DNA of 64,000 bases from Actinomycetes bacterium (GTDB lineage: Bacteria; Actinomycetota; Acidimicrobiia; Acidimicrobiales; Bog-793). The DNA lies in the NCBI GenBank assembly GCA_021798985.1, contig JAJZBI010000001.1:128194-192193 (forward strand), in the 5' to 3' direction. A program made the position numbers and the translations under genes. Every line of letters starts with the position of its first letter. Positions within the stretch are counted from its first letter, which is position 1. The notes under the pieces are model-generated. The model searched no databases. It saw nothing but the letters and a program-made list of their open reading frames with translations, and was not told the DNA's origin. This document shows positions 1-24,546 of the stretch, piece by piece.

Positions 1-808
1 GAACGCCGAGAGAGTCGGCCTCCTCGTCGCCAACGCTCATGACGTCGAGCAACCGGCTAGCAAAGAGGATCACGGCGACACCGATCGCCACATAGGGCGC
101 GATCTCCCCGACCTGCTGCCAACTGGAGTTGGCGAGGCTGCCGAGGATCCAGCTGTAGACCTGCTGGAGCTCGGCGGTGTTGCGCTGCAACAGAAAGGTC
201 TGCACCGCAGTGAAGAACGCCGCCACCGCCACGCCGGCGAGCACGAGCGTGGCAGAGCTGCGCGCCCGGCCGGCAGAGCGTCCGAGCACGTAGGTCGCCG
301 CCACCGAGACGACCGCGCCGGCGAAGGCGGCCAGTGGCACCGGGTTCAGGGCGAGCGCCGCGGGGTGCTGGACGAGCACGATCGCGGCGGTCGCTCCAAG
401 ACCGGCGCCCGAGGCGACGCCGAGCAGGTAGGGATCGGCCAGCGCGTTTTGGAAGACCCCCTGGTACGCGGCACCCGAGACCGCCAAGGTCCCGCCAACC
501 ATCGCGCCGAGGACGACGCGGGGCAGGCGGATCTGGAACAGTGCCGCAGAGGCCAGCGGCCCGAGGCCGTCGTGGATCGTGACGAAGGGCAGGCGGCCGA
601 CGAGCGCCAGCGCGATCGCCCGAGGCGGCAGGTCGAACGGGCCGATCAGCACGGCCACCAGCATCGAGGCGGCGAGCGCGGCGATGCCGATCGCCAGCAT
701 CCACCAGGGCAGGTGCCGCTCTCCTCGCGCGTTGGCGCCGTGCGTAGCGGCGAGGACCTCGACCGGAAGGCGCGCCGGTCGAGGCGAACGGAGCAACGGC
801 GCGCTCAC
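1..808 (-). CDS. FecCD/BtuC-family ABC transporter permease (cobalamin/iron-siderophore type); partial, C-terminal part continues beyond window start
   Basis: My own minus-strand translation, in a frame absent from the ORF track, reads VSAPLLRSPRPARLPVEV..RHLPWWMLAIGIAALAASMLVAVLIGPFDLPP..LFQIRLPRVVLGAMVGGTLAVSGAAYQGVFQNALADPYLLGVASGAGLGA..VLAGVAVAAFFTAVQTFLLQ. This is a typical FecCD transmembrane pattern with GC-rich third positions. The listed ORF 57..836 is an Arg-rich off-frame artefact. GTG start at 808 (alternative ATG at 700). A cobalamin riboswitch lies in its leader. Confidence 0.8.
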   Translation of the reverse strand, partial: MSAPLLRSPRPARLPVEVLAATHGANARGERHLPWWMLAIGIAALAASMLVAVLIGPFDLPPRAIALALVGRLPFVTIHDGLGPLASAALFQIRLPRVVLGAMVGGTLAVSGAAYQGVFQNALADPYLLGVASGAGLGATAAIVLVQHPAALALNPVPLAAFAGAVVSVAATYVLGRSAGRARSSATLVLAGVAVAAFFTAVQTFLLQRNTAELQQVYSWILGSLANSSWQQVGEIAPYVAIGVAVILFASRLLDVMSVGDEEADSLGV

Positions 809-871
809 GCGGCCGCGGGCACGCACGACCCCGCACCGGCTCGACCGCCGGGACCCCTCAACGCCGCTCCT

Positions 872-1080
872 TCCTGAGGGGGATCGACGGCAGCGGCGAG
901 GGCCCTGCCGCACGAGCCGCTCTTCCTCGAGAGCCTCTTGTCCGTGCACCGTGGCCAGGCGATCTGGCTCGGCCTCTCGGCCTTACAGCTGCGGGACAGC
1001 GCCGGACTCGCACCGGACTTCGCTGACACCACGGTCGCGGCCAACTTAGCCCGGAGGCATCCGCTCTGCCAGGGGCGGCG
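872..1080 (-). promoter_or_regulatory. Cobalamin (B12) riboswitch in leader of the minus-strand permease gene (boundaries approximate)
   Basis: The reverse complement of 985..1021 is GAAGTCCGGTGCGAGTCCGGCGCTGTCCCGCAGCTGT, the conserved B12-box core (GGTG..A.TCC..GCTG.CCCGCA.CTGT). Downstream on the same strand is GCCTGGCCACGGTGCACGG. It is positioned 5' of a BtuC-like permease. Confidence 0.75.
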
Positions 1081-13320: not shown

Positions 13321-14736
13321 CTAGCCCTGGGCTCGGGGCGGGAGCGGGCTCGCCGGGCGCGCCTCGGCGAGCACCTGCTCGAGCCAGCGGGCCGGGGGCA
13401 GGCCGGGGGCGCGGTCGTGGAGCTCTTTGGCGCGGCGCGCCCGCTCGTCGCTCGGCATCTCAAGGGCGCGGGCCAGCACCGCGGCGGTGCCCGAGACGTC
13501 GAAGGGGTCGAGCGCGAGCGCCGGACCGGCAAGCTCGCCGAAGGCGCCCGCCTCGCGTGACAGCGCCACCACGCCGTCGCTGCGGTTGACCGCGGGGCCC
13601 TCCTTGGCGACCAGGTTCATCCCGTCGCGAACCGGGTTCACGAGCAAGACGTCATAGCGGCGCAACGCGGCGAGCGACGCCGGAAAGTCGTCGTCGATCT
13701 CGAGCTCGATCGGCAGGTTCTCTCCCGATCCAAAGCGCTCGTTGATGCGCTCGACCAGGCGCTCGACCTCGTTGCGGTAGGCCAGGTACTCAGGCAGGTC
13801 CTGGCGCGAGGGGTAGGCCCGGGCGACGAACACCACCCGGCCACGCCAGCGCGGCTCGGTCTCGAGCAGCTCCTCGAAGGCGAGAAAGCCCCGCAGGAGG
13901 TTCTTCGAGAGCTCGATCCGGTCGGCGCGAAAGATCAGCTGACGGCCCGCGAGGCGATCGAGGAGCCGTTCTTCTGCGGCCCGGCACTCGGGCGACTCGG
14001 CGACGGCGGCGAGCGCCTGGACGTCGATGCCGAGCGGCGCGGCGAAGGCCAGCGGCGCCCCCTCCAGCACCCGCGCGGCTCCTGCGAGATAGCCGTCAGC
14101 CCACCGCGGCGTGTGGAAGCCCGCCGCCCCGTGCGCGGCGAGACCGCCGAGCAGCTCGGTGAGCACCGCCTGGGGGAGTACCGAGAGCTCGTCGGGGCCG
14201 GGGAACGGCGTGTGGGTGAAGTGCACCGTCTTCAGGTCCGGCCGCTGCTCGGCGAGGAAGGCGCCCACCAAAAAGAGGTGGTAGTCGTTGACCATCACGA
14301 CCCCGCCCTCGTTCGCGCGCTCGGCGATCTCGCTGGCAAAGCGCCGGTTGAACTCCCGGTAGCCCTCCCAGGCGCGGTGCCAGTGGCGGTCGAAGGCCGG
14401 CCGCCGGGTGCGGTCGAAGAGCCCGTGGGTGAGGAACCACAGCGATCCGTTGGCGATGACGCGGTAGGCCGCGTCGCGCACCTCGCCGGGCACGTCGACG
14501 AGGCGGAGCGCGCAGCCTCCGACGAGCTCGGCGGGAAGGCCCCGGCGCGCCGCCTCCCGGTCGCCCTCGCTCATGGTCGAGGCGATCCACAACCGGTCGC
14601 GTCCTTCGAGGCGCTCGAGCGCGTGCAGCAGGCTGGGGGCGAGCCCACCTGCCGCGTGGCGGACCACGAGCTCGCCCGATTCGCCGATGCGCAGCGTGGC
14701 CGGCCCCCGGTTGGAGACCACCACCAGGTCGCTCAC
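13321..14736 (-). CDS. otsA: Alpha,alpha-trehalose-phosphate synthase (GT20)
   Basis: MSDLVVVSNRGP N-terminus, then NDYHL and LVNPVRDGMNLVAKE motifs. Confidence 0.9.
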   Translation of the reverse strand: MSDLVVVSNRGPATLRIGESGELVVRHAAGGLAPSLLHALERLEGRDRLWIASTMSEGDREAARRGLPAELVGGCALRLVDVPGEVRDAAYRVIANGSLWFLTHGLFDRTRRPAFDRHWHRAWEGYREFNRRFASEIAERANEGGVVMVNDYHLFLVGAFLAEQRPDLKTVHFTHTPFPGPDELSVLPQAVLTELLGGLAAHGAAGFHTPRWADGYLAGAARVLEGAPLAFAAPLGIDVQALAAVAESPECRAAEERLLDRLAGRQLIFRADRIELSKNLLRGFLAFEELLETEPRWRGRVVFVARAYPSRQDLPEYLAYRNEVERLVERINERFGSGENLPIELEIDDDFPASLAALRRYDVLLVNPVRDGMNLVAKEGPAVNRSDGVVALSREAGAFGELAGPALALDPFDVSGTAAVLARALEMPSDERARRAKELHDRAPGLPPARWLEQVLAEARPASPLPPRAQG

Positions 14737-15572
14737 GGTTGGCTCAACACCCCGGCGCGCCGCAGCGCCGCCCCGAGGACGGCGTGCGCCTGGGGAACGA
14801 GCTGGTCGAGCGGGCGCGACCGGTGGACGCGGACCCCGAGGTCGACCTGGGCGAGGGCGCCGGCCCCGTAGCGGCCGGCGACGTCGATCAGCATCCCAAT
14901 GTCGGCGCCGTAGCCGTCGTCGAGCTCGAGGTGCGCGAGCGCCTCGCGGCGCACGGCGGTCTCGCCGGCGATCGGTTGCTCGAGCACGCTCAGGTCCGGG
15001 AACAGCAACGCCAGCGCCGGACGTGCGACGAGCTCGGTGACCCGCCCGCCCCCGACCACGTCGCCGCGGGCCGAGCGCCCGAAGCGCCCCTTGACGAGCA
15101 CGATCGAGGCGTCGCTGAGCAGTGGGCCGAGGAGGCCGGTGACGAAATGCGCACGCAGGTTGGAAACGTCGGCGTCCAAAAAGACGACGATGTCTCCCTC
15201 GGTCACCGCCAGGCCGACGCGCATCGCCCCGCCCTTGCCGAGACCCACCGGGCGGCCGTGGGCGTCGCGCTCCGCGGTGCTCGCCACGACCCTCGCGCCG
15301 GCGTGCGCCGCCATGTCGGCGGTGCGGTCCTGCGAGCCGTCGTCGACCACCACGACGTCATCGACCAGGCCGATGCGGTCCACCAGGCCGTCGCGCACGG
15401 CCGAGACGACCCGGCCGACCGTGCGCTCCTCGTCACGGGCGGGAATGACGACGGCGACCTTCTGGGAGCCTTTGCGCTCCGCGAGCTGGGCGGCACTGAA
15501 GTCCTCGTGGTGGTACGTGGTGATGGAACCGGGCACGACGACCATCTTTCCCTCTGACCCACCGGGCGGCAA
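14733..15572 (-). CDS. gpgS: Glucosyl-3-phosphoglycerate synthase (GT81)
   Basis: AVVIPARDEE, VVDDGSQDRT, GKGGAM, FLDADV, GGGRVTELVARP and VDLGVRVHRSRPLDQL closely parallel the mycobacterial GpgS (Rv1208) sequence as I recall it. It has a 4-nt overlap with the otsA start. Confidence 0.8.
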   Translation of the reverse strand: MPPGGSEGKMVVVPGSITTYHHEDFSAAQLAERKGSQKVAVVIPARDEERTVGRVVSAVRDGLVDRIGLVDDVVVVDDGSQDRTADMAAHAGARVVASTAERDAHGRPVGLGKGGAMRVGLAVTEGDIVVFLDADVSNLRAHFVTGLLGPLLSDASIVLVKGRFGRSARGDVVGGGRVTELVARPALALLFPDLSVLEQPIAGETAVRREALAHLELDDGYGADIGMLIDVAGRYGAGALAQVDLGVRVHRSRPLDQLVPQAHAVLGAALRRAGVLSQP

Positions 15573-15614
15573 CGTCGGCCCTTTGACGAGGCCGCGTTGC
15601 GTCGTCCAAACTGG

Positions 15615-15720
15615 AGCTGATCATCCAGAGCGGCTGAGGGACGGGCCCTGTGACGCCGCGGCAACCAGTGCCGGAGCGATGCTCCTGTGCGAGGTGCCAA
15701 TGCCCGACCGATGAGGGAGG
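15615..15720 (+). promoter_or_regulatory. SAM riboswitch (S-box/SAM-I clan, possibly the SAM-I/IV or SAM-IV-like variant because no P4 hairpin is evident)
   Basis: TCATCCAGAGCGGCTGAGGGACGGGCCCTGTGACGCCGCGGCAACC...GGTGCCAATGCCCGACCGATGAGGGAGG matches the S-box core (AUC.AGAG.GG..GAGGGA..GGCCC..UGA..CC.GCAACC...GGUGC.AAU.CC...GAUGA). P1 pairs TCATC with GATGA, and its 3' strand abuts the GGGAGGA SD of the next CDS. Confidence 0.8.
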
Positions 15721-15724
15721 AACC

Positions 15725-16966
15725 GTGGGGTTCGTGCAAGGCCTGGTCTGTCGTGAGTGCCGACGCGCCTATCCGGCCGAAGCCCTGCACGTCTGCGACT
15801 ACTGCTTTGGACCGCTCGAGGTCGCCTACGATTACGACGCGATCGCCGCGCGGGTCTCCAAAGCGCGCATTGGCGCCGGGCCGGCCAGCATCTGGCGCTA
15901 CGTCGACCTGCTGCCGGTGGCCGGTCCCGCCGGCGCCGACCTCAACCCCGGCTTCACCCCCCTGGTGCGGGCCGACCGCCTGGCCGCCGAGCTCGGCCTC
16001 GGCGAGCTCTGGCTGAAAGACGACACCCGCAACCCGACCGGCTCGTTCAAAGACCGCGTCGTCGGCGTCGCCCTGACCAAGGCGCGCGAGCTCGGGCTGA
16101 AGGTCGCCGCCTGCGCGTCGACCGGCAACCTCGCCAACGCGGTGGCGGCGGCAGCTGCCCGCGCAGGCATGGATTCCTACGTCTTCATCCCTGCCAACCT
16201 CGAGCGGGTCAAGGTGGCGACGACGGCGGTCTTTGGTGGACGCCTCGTTGCGGTCGAAGGCAACTACGACGACGTCAACCGACTCTGCGCCGAGCTGGCG
16301 AGCGATCGCCCGGAATGGGCATTCGTCAACGTCAACGTGCGCCCCTACTACTCCGAGGGCTCAAAGACCCTGGCCTTCGAGGTGGCCGAACAGCTCGGCT
16401 GGGAGCTGCCGGACCACGTCGTCGTGCCGATCGCCTCGGGCAGCCAGCTCACCAAGATCCACAAGGGCTTCGGCGAGCTCGAGAAGGTTGGCCTCGTCGA
16501 GCCGCACCCCGTCCGGGTCTCGGGCGCCCAGGCGCTCGGGTGCGCACCGGTGGCCACCGCCTTTGCCGAGGGATCCGACACGGTCCGCCCCGTCCGCCCC
16601 GACACGATCGCCAAGTCCTTGGCGATCGGGAACCCGGCAGACGGCTGGTACGCGCTCGAGGTGGTCCGCTCGAGCGGAGGCCGGGTCGGGGCGGTGAGCG
16701 ACCCCGAGATCCTCGAGGCGATCTCCCTGCTCGCCCGCACCGAGGGGATCTTCGCCGAGACCGCCGGTGGCGTCACGATCGCCACGCTGGCCAAGCTCGC
16801 CGCCGAGGGCGCGATCGGCCCCGACGAGCGCGTCGTCGCCTACGTCACCGGCAATGGCCTGAAGACCGTCGAGGCCCTCGGCGAGGGCGTCGGCCCGAGC
16901 TACGTGATCCCCCCGTCCCTCGAAGCATTCGTCGCGGCCGACGAGGCCGCAGGAGGCATCCGATGA
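15725..16966 (+). CDS. Threonine synthase family PLP enzyme (ThrC-like; probable MetM-type O-phosphohomoserine-dependent homocysteine synthase)
   Basis: In-frame part of ORF 15650..16966. GTG at 15725 follows GAGGGAGGA. There is an N-terminal Cys4 ribbon (CRECRRAY..CDYCFGPLE) and the PLP lysine region NPTGSFKDR. It lies immediately downstream of a SAM riboswitch and overlaps (ATGA) a sulfur-carrier gene. Confidence 0.85.
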   Translation: MGFVQGLVCRECRRAYPAEALHVCDYCFGPLEVAYDYDAIAARVSKARIGAGPASIWRYVDLLPVAGPAGADLNPGFTPLVRADRLAAELGLGELWLKDDTRNPTGSFKDRVVGVALTKARELGLKVAACASTGNLANAVAAAAARAGMDSYVFIPANLERVKVATTAVFGGRLVAVEGNYDDVNRLCAELASDRPEWAFVNVNVRPYYSEGSKTLAFEVAEQLGWELPDHVVVPIASGSQLTKIHKGFGELEKVGLVEPHPVRVSGAQALGCAPVATAFAEGSDTVRPVRPDTIAKSLAIGNPADGWYALEVVRSSGGRVGAVSDPEILEAISLLARTEGIFAETAGGVTIATLAKLAAEGAIGPDERVVAYVTGNGLKTVEALGEGVGPSYVIPPSLEAFVAADEAAGGIR

Positions 16967-17238
16967 GCGTCATCGTCCGCATCCCCGCCCAGCTCCGCTC
17001 CTTGACCGGGGGCGTCGGCGAGGTCGCCGTCGAGGGCGCCACCGTCGCCGAGGTGTTCGCGGCCCTCGACAAGGCGCACCCAGGCATGGGCGAGCGCCTC
17101 CTCGACGAGGGCGGCAACCTGCGGCGCTTCGTCAACGTCTTCCTCGCCGACGAGGACGTCCGCTTCTTGAAGGGCCTCGACACGCCGGTGAGCGACGGCC
17201 AGACGCTCTCGGTGGTGCCCGCCGTCGCCGGGGGCTAG
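16963..17238 (+). CDS. MoaD/ThiS family sulfur-carrier protein (C-terminal Gly-Gly; MetO/CysO-like)
   Basis: My own read gives ATG 16963 (AGGAGG at 16951..16956, ATGA overlap with the upstream stop) and TAG 17236..17238. The 91-aa product MSVIVRIPAQLRSLTGG...FVNVFLADEDVRFLKGLDTPVSDGQTLSVVPAVAGG ends in GG. It is buried in the longer off-start ORF 15757..17238. Confidence 0.8.
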   Translation: MSVIVRIPAQLRSLTGGVGEVAVEGATVAEVFAALDKAHPGMGERLLDEGGNLRRFVNVFLADEDVRFLKGLDTPVSDGQTLSVVPAVAGG

Positions 17239-17607
17239 CGGCCAGCTGCGAAGCGGCTGACGCGCAAGCGAGGGAGCTCGGCGGGCTCCGAGGCTGCGTC
17301 AGCACCACGCGCCGGCCAGCTCGTTCGGCCAGCTCAGGAGCTGGCGAGCTGCTGGCCGCAGAAGAAAACTGCGAACGGAGCGGGGCGCCACCGAGACCTC
17401 GCCGGACTGCTCGTCCAGGGCTTGTCGGAGAACGTCACGGCGAGGCGCCCGGTCAGAGCGCGCGCCGGCGGCGCTTCGAGACGACCGTGATCGGCGCGAG
17501 CAGCAGCGAGGGCGGCGGGCCTCGGTGTCCGCGCGCCGCGTTGCGCCGTGCGGGAGACGAGCCCGCGGCCCGCGCGGTTGCACGACTCGCCAGCGCGTGG
17601 TTTGCTA

Positions 17608-19297
<1,690 letters not shown>

Positions 19298-23825: not shown

Positions 23826-23860
23826 ACATCATAGCATCAAATATTGTGATGCTATGATGT
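23826..23860. promoter_or_regulatory. Perfect 14-7-14 palindrome, candidate VapB autoregulatory operator/promoter
   Basis: ACATCATAGCATCA-AATATTG-TGATGCTATGATGT is AT-rich in a GC-rich genome and ends 4 nt before the vapB ATG. Confidence 0.7.
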
Positions 23861-23864
23861 GCGG

Positions 23865-24113
23865 ATGCGTACGACAGTGACCCTCGACCCCGACGTCGAA
23901 CAGCTGATTCGGCGGCGGATGGGCGAGCGCGGGCAGTCGTTCAAGGAGGCCCTCAACGACACGGTGCGCGAGGGCCTCCGAGCCCGTCGCTCGGAGTTCT
24001 CGACGCCCGTGCACGAGATGGGGCAGCCGGGCGTGGTGCTCGACCGGGCGTTGCGACTCGCCGGCGACCTCGAGGACGAGGAATTGGTCCGCCGCGAGCG
24101 CCGGGGGTCGTGA
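23865..24113 (+). CDS. vapB: Type II antitoxin, VapB-like (ribbon-helix-helix type N-terminus)
   Basis: MRTTVTLDPDVEQLIRRRMGERGQSFKEALNDTVREGL. It is small and lies immediately upstream of a PIN toxin with a 4-nt gap. Confidence 0.8.
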   Translation: MRTTVTLDPDVEQLIRRRMGERGQSFKEALNDTVREGLRARRSEFSTPVHEMGQPGVVLDRALRLAGDLEDEELVRRERRGS

Positions 24114-24117
24114 GCCG

Positions 24118-24546
24118 GTGGAGATCGTTGACGCCAACGTCTTGATCTACGCCGTCAATGCCGATGCCCGGCATCACGACCGGTCCCGACGTTGGCTCGA
24201 CGGAGCGCTGTCGGGTGGGAGCACGGTGGGATTCGCTTGGGTGGTGCTGCTCGCCTTCCTGCGGCTATCGACCAAGTCCGAGGTGTTTCCACGGCCACTC
24301 ACCCCCGACGGCGCGATGGACGTCGTCGACGCCTGGCTCTCTGCGCCCGCAGCGGTGATCATCGAACCCACCCGTGAACATCCGCGGGTGCTGCGTCGGC
24401 TGCTTGGCGAGCTTGGCACGGGCGCCAACTTGACGAACGACGCGCACCTCGCCGCCCTGAGCATCGAGCACCGGTGCGCCATCGTCTCTTTCGACAGTGA
24501 CTTCGGCCGGTTCGCCGGCGTGACCTGCCGCACGCCACCGCATTGA
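24118..24546 (+). CDS. vapC: Type II toxin VapC (PIN domain ribonuclease)
   Basis: VEIVDANVLIYAV (first acidic residue), NDAHLAALS, and the FDSDF C-terminal motif. Confidence 0.85.
   Translation: MEIVDANVLIYAVNADARHHDRSRRWLDGALSGGSTVGFAWVVLLAFLRLSTKSEVFPRPLTPDGAMDVVDAWLSAPAAVIIEPTREHPRVLRRLLGELGTGANLTNDAHLAALSIEHRCAIVSFDSDFGRFAGVTCRTPPH

Follow-up and report, generated by a model that had tools for sequence, protein, structure and literature searches.

At positions 15,583–17,238 of a 64,000-nucleotide (nt) stretch of Acidimicrobiia DNA (Bog-793 lineage; contig JAJZBI010000001.1, positions 128,194–192,193; the whole stretch is hereafter called the window), an S-adenosylmethionine (SAM) riboswitch precedes two overlapping genes. 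The first encodes an enzyme of the threonine synthase (ThrC) family that would use pyridoxal 5'-phosphate (PLP), and the second a small sulfur-carrier protein; we refer to them as the metM-like and metO-like genes. The G+C content of the window is 71%, and the proteins and loci most similar to its own belong to metagenome-assembled genomes (MAGs) of uncultured Acidimicrobiales and Acidimicrobiaceae. A first-pass annotation, made from the DNA letters and their translations, had proposed that the pair is a MetM/MetO-type module for homocysteine synthesis. The elements of the locus are listed below, where P denotes a paired region, J a joining segment, PK a pseudoknot and SD the Shine-Dalgarno sequence.

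15583..15612, plus strand: putative promoter suggested by conservation, with a -35-like TTGACG (15583-15588), an 18-nt spacer and a -10-like CAAACT (15607-15612)
15618..15717, plus strand: SAM-I (S-box) aptamer without P4, from the RF00162 match
15621-15625, plus strand: P1 5' strand, UCAUC, read from the DNA
inside 15618..15717, plus strand: P2 with kink-turn and PK-1 loop, and P3 (GGCAACC...GGUGCC)
15693-15706, plus strand: J3/4, GGUGCCAAUGCCCG, followed by ACC alone before the P1 3' strand
15710-15714, plus strand: P1 3' strand, GAUGA, read from the DNA
15715..15727, plus strand: SD GGGAGGA (15715-15721), abutting the P1 3' strand, and GTG start codon (15725-15727)
15725..16966, plus strand: metM-like gene, 413-residue ThrC-family PLP enzyme (PF00291, TIGR00260)
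16963..17238, plus strand: metO-like gene, 91-residue ThiS/MoaD-fold sulfur-carrier protein (PF02597)

The riboswitch is unambiguous at the level of family. In an Rfam covariance-model scan of the whole window (cmscan), RF00162 (SAM) was the sole SAM riboswitch match, at 15618-15717 on the plus strand (61.5 bits against a gathering score of 44.4; E 7.9e-12), and it spanned model positions 1-108. A permissive rescan of 261 nt returned RF00162 again (E 3e-14) and nothing else notable. The S-box-like core that the first-pass annotation had read by eye is thus a full family match. The same family recurs in relatives: RF00162 scored 52–75 bits just 5' of the metM-like gene in 18 of 20 loci submitted to Rfam, the other two being L079 and L024, which begins within the aptamer, and 35 related leaders scored 52–84 bits. 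Single-sequence folding of 15610-15760 was uninformative (z-score -0.83), and its minimum-free-energy structure did not contain the aptamer.

What sets this aptamer apart is the loss of P4. In the RF00162 alignment, 1 nt stands in place of the 18 model positions of P4. The gap between J3/4 and P1 measures 3 nt in the window (ACC) and 3–4 nt in 79 of 81 leaders of its lineage, which leaves them without a P4 by this measure. The same junction thus occurs in the window and in 78 of 80 related Acidimicrobiia loci; L080 misses the regular expression for the junction, yet matches RF00162. The rest of the fold is well kept. P2a, P2b and PK-1 are paired in all 72 distinct leaders, and the base of P3 in essentially all of them. 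At two P2a pairs (in 8 and 19 of the 72 leaders) and one PK-1 pair (in 6), GC has been replaced by AU in compensatory fashion. Together, the pairing and the compensatory changes establish the kink-turn and PK-1 architecture of SAM-I, built around a three-way junction. Judged by its sequence, the window RNA is a P4-less SAM-I aptamer, a variant already known: natural P4-less SAM-I aptamers have been described in Actinomycetota, with evidence that they continue to respond to SAM (PMC12714719).

The absence of P4 had led the first-pass annotation to suggest a SAM-I/IV or SAM-IV-type variant. Its observation on P4 holds, and its assignment does not. SAM-IV RNAs lack P4, carry a P5 hairpin after P1 and pair the P3 loop with the 3' end (PK-2), and SAM-I/IV RNAs have P4 and PK-2 while PK-1 is absent (PMC6890682). 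Rfam clan competition keeps RF00162 for the window RNA. Across 74 Acidimicrobiia leaders, the best PK-2-type helix between P3 and the tail had 6.5 base pairs (bp), compared with 6.45 bp in shuffled sequences, and no P3-to-tail pair was recurrent. The P3 interior is short in many of these leaders (14 nt, for example), too short to offer a loop strand for such pairing. With RF00162 retained in the clan, no P3-to-tail pairing, and a precedent for P4-less SAM-I, we assign the RNA to SAM-I and not to SAM-IV. The hairpin GAACC-GUGG-GGUUC around the start codon (15720-15733) was considered separately as a candidate P5 and rejected, as it is not conserved in the lineage.

The geometry of the leader suggests how the aptamer could act. 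As had been noticed in the first pass, the SD follows the 3' strand of P1 without a gap, and this arrangement is general: of 79 related leaders, most have GGAGG directly following GAUGA, and 54 place the start codon 9–10 nt past P1 (10 nt in the window). On the other side of the aptamer, 37 of 73 related leaders have a TTGAC motif 36–40 nt 5' of P1; a CAnnnT-GG block is found closer in, 8–13 nt 5' of P1. The putative promoter suggests that the transcript would start a few nt before P1, so close that no upstream anti-SD would be available. A consensus promoter and terminator scan of 15400-17700 made no calls, the putative promoter included, and found no terminator-like site between the aptamer and the start codon, an interval too short to hold one.

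The simplest model for this geometry would be translational occlusion of the SD. At high SAM, the aptamer would bind its ligand and the 5-bp P1 would close. With P1 closed, the SD would sit at the base of a compact fold where the 30S subunit could not bind, and metM translation would be off. Because the ATGA overlap would couple metO to metM, metO translation would stop as well. P1 itself would gate the SD in this model, with no separate expression platform. Some other Acidimicrobiia leaders are built differently. L064, L065, L067, L068, L070, L073 and L075 have a P4-less aptamer with 70–115 extra nt between P1 and the start codon, and this stretch holds a conserved hairpin-forming sequence, GAGCGG...CCGCUCGAGG.GCUCGAGAGCGCGUCGAG, which suggests that the subgroup uses a different expression platform.

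The gene under this riboswitch looks at first sight like thrC. Its product matches PF00291 (PALP fold, as in fold-type II PLP enzymes; E 1e-74), scores 293 bits against TIGR00260 thrC (cutoff 167), and reaches 302.9 bits against PRK08197, an NCBI threonine synthase model with a cutoff of 303. The best NCBIfam cysteine synthase match, in comparison, reached 45 bits against a cutoff of 387. Cysteate synthase was considered as an identity and rejected (TIGR03844, 79 bits against a cutoff of 325). The protein has the PLP-lysine motif PTGSFKDR, as do 119 of 120 close relatives. Of solved structures, the threonine synthases 2ZSJ, 6CGQ, 2D1F and 1UIM lie nearest, and a search of the Protein Data Bank (PDB) returned no MetM structure. 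Matches to these structures begin at residue 53–59, so the N-terminal Cys4 ribbon (C9, C12, C24, C27), already remarked in the first-pass annotation, is an extra element. A search of 1.84 billion cluster representatives yielded 2138 relatives at E <= 1e-30. The database relatives found were all named 'threonine synthase', which is the mislabelling as thrC that the first-pass annotation had anticipated.

Closer comparison separates the metM-like protein from ThrC. It is about 40% identical to ThrC of Mycobacterium tuberculosis and Bacillus subtilis, and 57–63% identical to riboswitch-linked actinomycete homologues. In a neighbour-joining tree of 82 full-length sequences it groups with these homologues, apart from the solved ThrCs. 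The protein carries two motifs of this clade, NVNVRPYYSEGSKT and ETAGG. One active-site loop reads N-V-N-V-R-P-Y-Y-x-E-G-S-K-T in the clade, versus N-S-V-N-P-x-R-I-E-G-Q-K-T in the solved ThrCs, and a second reads ETAGG versus EPAS(A). In ThrC, the first loop holds the Asn, Ser and Arg that grip the substrate phosphate; the relocated Arg of the metM-like clade would fit an enzyme that treats the departing phosphate, or the nucleophile that comes in, differently. Among the 120 closest relatives, 117 have the clade loop motif and all have the Cys4 ribbon. The ribbon was tried as a marker of MetM and rejected, as the ThrC-type representatives P0241 and P0254 have it too; these two ribbon-bearing proteins carry the ThrC loop motif and branch apart from the metM-like clade.

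The second gene is physically tied to the first and encodes a protein with the hallmarks of a sulfur carrier. Its ATG (16963) overlaps the metM-like TGA (16964-16966) in an ATGA junction. The product ends VPAVAGG before the stop codon, placing Gly-Gly exactly at the C-terminus, and it matches PF02597 (ThiS, a beta-grasp fold) at E 4e-15. Both the overlap and the nature of the product had been read correctly in the first pass. Among solved structures, the carrier matches 4N6E_B (ThiS/MoaD family, E 8e-21) and M. tuberculosis 3DWG_C (E 1e-19) best, and both alignments run from the first residue to the terminal Gly-Gly. We take 3DWG_C, deposited as 9.5 kDa antigen cfp10A, to be the sulfur carrier CysO, and 4N6E_B is presumably a carrier bound to the thiosugar synthase BexX.

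Two further observations concern the carrier. The archaeal SAMP1 equivalog model NF041918 (NCBIfam) scores 63.4 bits on the metO-like protein, above its cutoff of 60, so that it may be labelled 'ubiquitin-like small modifier protein 1' by annotation pipelines that use this model. In Streptomyces aculeolatus the metO-like protein (L317:7205-7480) ends AVAGGC, one residue beyond Gly-Gly, and the proteins of four other Streptomyces, like the window's, end at GG. Trimming of the C-terminus, which is the role published for Mec, would then be needed in some species only.

The unit of riboswitch, enzyme and carrier is widely conserved. The carrier gene lies directly 3' of metM in 79 of 80 related Acidimicrobiia loci, and the last one ends inside metM. 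The association of riboswitch and metM held in each of the three groups sampled.

Group A, Acidimicrobiia: riboswitch in about 74 of 81 by regular expression, and in more by Rfam; adjacent metO in about 79 of 81
Group B, Micromonosporaceae, Geodermatophilaceae and Frankia: riboswitch in 69 of 80; adjacent metO in 2 of 80
Group C, Actinomadura, Nanopelagicales, Aeromicrobium and others: riboswitch in 64 of 79; adjacent metO in 66 of 79

Group B (L081-L158; Micromonospora, Actinoplanes, Blastococcus, Frankia and relatives) has riboswitch and metM with metO rarely adjacent, so it must either encode its carrier elsewhere or share one, perhaps CysO, with another system.

Streptomyces, the genus of the characterized system, has the same locus. 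Two protein-seeded genome scans (with P0122 and with the L160 MetM) returned other actinomycete families only and no Streptomyces, and the Streptomyces loci were found through a degenerate DNA pattern for the clade motif. In all seven, the metM-like gene is 56.5–60% identical to that of the window. The five that extend past metM have riboswitch, metM-like and metO-like genes in a row (metO-like, 55–60% identity), and RF00162 scored 76–80 bits in the four leaders tested. A divergent gpgS-like gene is present in six of the seven loci, and groEL (79%) in four, within the sequence stretch examined; in L276, metO and groEL are separated by a cold-shock gene (csp). The window (14733-19297) and L276, L243, L288, L294 and L160 share the gene order gpgS(-) / riboswitch-metM-metO / (csp) groEL. 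This shared order makes the window locus a positional orthologue of the Streptomyces metM-metO locus, and its retention from Acidimicrobiia to Streptomyces makes the locus ancient within Actinomycetota. The actinomycete homologues are 33–36% identical to B. subtilis ThrC, matching the 33% reported for MetM of Streptomyces albulus (bioRxiv 10.64898/2026.09.15.751699).

A complete genome shows that metM-like and thrC genes can coexist. The 11.85-Mb chromosome of Nonomuraea gerenzanensis has riboswitch-metM-metO at 11.81 Mb and, at 2.50 Mb, a canonical thrC whose product shares 65% identity with M. tuberculosis ThrC. The metM-like gene of this species at least is therefore not its housekeeping threonine synthase.

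These genes have a known counterpart. S. albulus MetM, a ThrC homologue, is reported to work with the sulfur carrier MetO, Mec and MoeZ to convert O-phosphohomoserine to homocysteine (Hasebe et al. 2024, Appl Environ Microbiol 90:e01247-24, cited in PMC12172450 and bioRxiv 10.1101/2024.10.14.618325). The same sources place a SAM riboswitch upstream of S. albulus metM, state that MetM is often misannotated as threonine synthase, and report that the Streptomyces MetM/MetO system rescues methionine auxotrophy (PMC12172450; bioRxiv 10.1101/2024.10.14.618325). The Streptomyces synteny, the separate clade, the closeness of the carrier to CysO and the published SAM-riboswitch metM support the homocysteine module proposed in the first pass. 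Combining these comparisons, we consider it very probable that metM and metO form a two-gene operon of the methionine pathway that SAM switches off.

We infer the substrate and the chemistry, the latter carried over from the S. albulus work. At low SAM, MetM would take O-phospho-L-homoserine and eliminate its phosphate. Where ThrC adds water, MetM would add sulfur from the thiocarboxylate at the C-terminal Gly-Gly of MetO, yielding homocysteine. A MoeZ-type E1 activating enzyme would have to load MetO, and a JAMM hydrolase (Mec) would probably serve it; both would be encoded elsewhere in the genome.

The surroundings of the operon are housekeeping genes: acnA, otsB, otsA and the divergent gpgS upstream, and groEL and a hemQ-like gene downstream. 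Three features lie between metO and the end of groEL, one of them a controlling inverted repeat of chaperone expression (CIRCE).

17256..17303, plus strand: GC-rich inverted repeat GCTGACGC...GCGTCAGC without a U-tract, 18 nt past the metO stop codon
17608-17634: perfect CIRCE operator TTAGCACTC-N9-GAGTGCTAA, 38 nt 5' of groEL (0 expected by chance)
17672-19297, downstream of metO: groEL, preceded by CIRCE

With its own CIRCE operator, groEL is a separate transcription unit under HrcA-type regulation, and riboswitch-metM-metO is consequently self-contained. The GC-rich repeat may mark the end of the operon; it was not called as an intrinsic terminator in the scan of 15400-17700. We also scanned about 57 coding-like open reading frames (ORFs) of the window against Pfam or NCBIfam, and among them found no second PALP enzyme and no MetX, MetA, MetY or MetB. 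A tblastn search with MetM and with M. tuberculosis ThrC detected no thrC paralogue in the window or in the 80 related loci.

Elsewhere in the window, a cobalamin riboswitch (RF00174, 39.7 bits, 936-1048, minus strand) lies 5' of a FecCD-family ABC permease gene (2-949, minus strand), from which a periplasmic binding protein gene (938-2275) diverges; the region looks like an ordinary B12-regulated uptake system. At 23859-24546, a small ORF followed by a PIN-domain protein gene (24118-24546, PF01850) is a VapBC-like toxin-antitoxin pair. In one related MAG, group II intron domains occur about 2 kb 3' of metO (L038:7335-7641; RF02001, 107 bits; RF01998, 59.5 bits).

Other assignments of the gene pair have to be weighed. 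The one that automated annotation would choose is that the ORF is a real threonine synthase, with a MoaD for molybdopterin next to it by chance. The TIGR00260 score far above cutoff, a PRK08197 score a fraction of a bit from its threshold, solved relatives that are all bona fide ThrCs, and the uniform naming of database relatives all speak for it, as does a Microcystis homologue that made threonine in vitro under some conditions (PMC12172450). Yet a riboswitch that turns genes off with SAM has no metabolic logic on threonine synthesis, and it is kept in Acidimicrobiia, Actinomycetes and Streptomyces. Moreover, translational coupling is to a CysO-type carrier, not to moaE or moaA, the protein falls outside the ThrC clade with different active-site loop motifs, and Nonomuraea has its separate canonical thrC besides. 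We regard a true threonine synthase as very unlikely.

A sulfur-transferring pair could also make something other than homocysteine. In a CysM/CysO-like system, O-phosphoserine and the thiocarboxylated carrier would yield cysteine, and regulation by SAM would follow from the fact that cysteine feeds methionine. Some cysteine and transsulfuration genes of Gram-positive bacteria are indeed under S-box control, and the carrier matches 3DWG_C over its full length (E 1e-19). The PLP partner, however, belongs to the ThrC subfamily and not to CysM/CysK, its cysteine synthase score being 45 bits against a cutoff of 387, and the orthologous Streptomyces system is reported to act on O-phosphohomoserine and to rescue methionine auxotrophy. 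Cysteine synthesis is therefore improbable, if a little less so than threonine synthesis. The least probable of these alternatives is that the pair makes another sulfur metabolite (a thio-amino acid, say, or the precursor of a natural product) in the manner of BexX/CysO. In its favour, 4N6E_B, the best solved match of the carrier, belongs to the ThiS/MoaD family, and no role is assigned to several ThrC-like representatives that are more distant; against this, the neighbours (acnA, otsA/B, gpgS, groEL, hemQ) form no biosynthetic gene cluster, position and riboswitch are conserved phylum-wide, and control by SAM points to core methionine metabolism.

Several points weigh against a SAM-repressed metM-metO operon for homocysteine synthesis. 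The likeness to the characterized S. albulus MetM is indirect, running through other Streptomyces species at the same locus, and the tree that separates the clade from ThrC carries no bootstrap support. Among the roughly 57 ORFs scanned in the window there is no ThiF/MoeB-type E1, whose absence from the window the first-pass annotation had itself pointed out, and no JAMM protease (JAB-family, Mec-type). A cyanobacterial (Microcystis) homologue beside a metO-like gene was reported to behave as a threonine synthase/deaminase and not as a full MetM in vivo (PMC12172450), so function may vary within the wider clade. As for regulation, P1 has just 5 bp and the case for hiding the SD is purely geometric; an alternative UCAUCC:GGAGGA pairing can, on paper, also be drawn.

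The metM leaders of the class Actinomycetes (including Streptomyces and Nonomuraea) differ from that of the window. They score as SAM-I and keep P4 and PK-1. In addition, their P3 loop forms a covarying helix with 3' tail sequence located 3–7 nt past P1, across the spacer that separates the SD from the start codon (L276:1788-1990, L243:674-880, L317:5747-5950, L240:5816-6000 and most of L161-L239). The complementary variants are GCGAGGCC/GGCCUCGC (26 leaders), GCGAGGCC/GGCCUCGU (11), GCGAGGCUC/GGGCCUCGC, GCGGAGAC/GUCUCCGC (3), GCGAUGAC/GUCGUCGC (2) and CGACUGC/GUAGUCG (3). Acidimicrobiia leaders, the window's included, have neither P4 nor this pairing. One tentative reading, which we hold to be possible and no better than that, is that metM leaders record the gain and loss of peripheral riboswitch elements: a SAM-I+PK-2 hybrid in Actinomycetes, and in Acidimicrobiia a minimal three-way-junction derivative of about 100 nt in which P1 would gate the SD. 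If neither form has been described before, the hybrid and the minimal derivative would blur the boundaries of three SAM-clan families.

The locus leaves pathway knowledge itself unchanged; its interest lies in distribution and annotation. If our reading is right, the MetM/MetO route extends beyond Streptomyces, at the same position and with the same riboswitch class, to uncultured Acidimicrobiia, which are abundant in soil and water metagenomes. With relatives named 'threonine synthase' and a carrier nameable as SAMP1, metabolic reconstructions of such MAGs would overlook how homocysteine is made and may score the organisms as methionine auxotrophs in error. For work on riboswitches, the locus presents a naturally minimal SAM-I aptamer (no P4, no PK-2, no expression platform) beside orthologous leaders that keep those elements.

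Compared with known SAM riboswitches, the window RNA shares with SAM-I (RF00162) P1, the P2 kink-turn, PK-1, P3 and the conserved junction sequences. It departs from SAM-I in having a three-way rather than a four-way junction, and in lacking a terminator/anti-terminator platform, with the SD directly after P1. With SAM-IV and SAM-I/IV it has the SAM-binding core sequences in common, and with SAM-IV also the lack of P4 (PMC6890682); the defining PK-2, along with P5 in SAM-IV, is not conserved in the window's lineage. The P3-to-tail pairing of Actinomycetes leaders resembles PK-2 but sits on an RNA that Rfam scores as SAM-I.

Among enzymes, canonical ThrC (2ZSJ, 6CGQ, 2D1F, 1UIM) has the same fold and the NPTGSFKDR motif, about 40% identity over residues 53-400, and O-phosphohomoserine as substrate, the same one presumed here. 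Unlike ThrC, the metM-like protein has an additional 55-residue N-terminal Cys4 ribbon, N-V-N-V-R-P-Y-Y in place of N-S-V-N-P-x-R, and ETAGG in place of EPAS(A); its gene is under a SAM riboswitch and coupled to a carrier, and it belongs to a separate clade. The M. tuberculosis CysM/CysO/Mec/MoeZ system has in CysO (3DWG_C) a close relative of the metO-like protein, and the reaction logic would be common to both: an O-phospho amino acid gives rise to a PLP-bound, aminoacrylate-type intermediate, which the thiocarboxylated carrier then attacks. Here, the PLP enzyme is of the ThrC subfamily and not CysM, the presumed substrate is O-phosphohomoserine and not O-phosphoserine, mec and moeZ are not adjacent, and control is by a SAM riboswitch.

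The closest parallel is MetM/MetO of S. albulus, in which, as in the window, a ThrC-homologous PLP enzyme stands behind a SAM riboswitch with a small, GG-terminated ThiS/MoaD-fold carrier adjacent. The window differs from Streptomyces in its Acidimicrobiia host, in the ATGA overlap of metM and metO, in having no csp between metO and groEL, and in a riboswitch without P4 and without the P3 loop-to-3' tail pairing; its carrier ends exactly at GG, unlike the GGC end in S. aculeolatus. The locus thus extends to a new class-level lineage a kind of system that was published in 2024 and that GapMind already includes.

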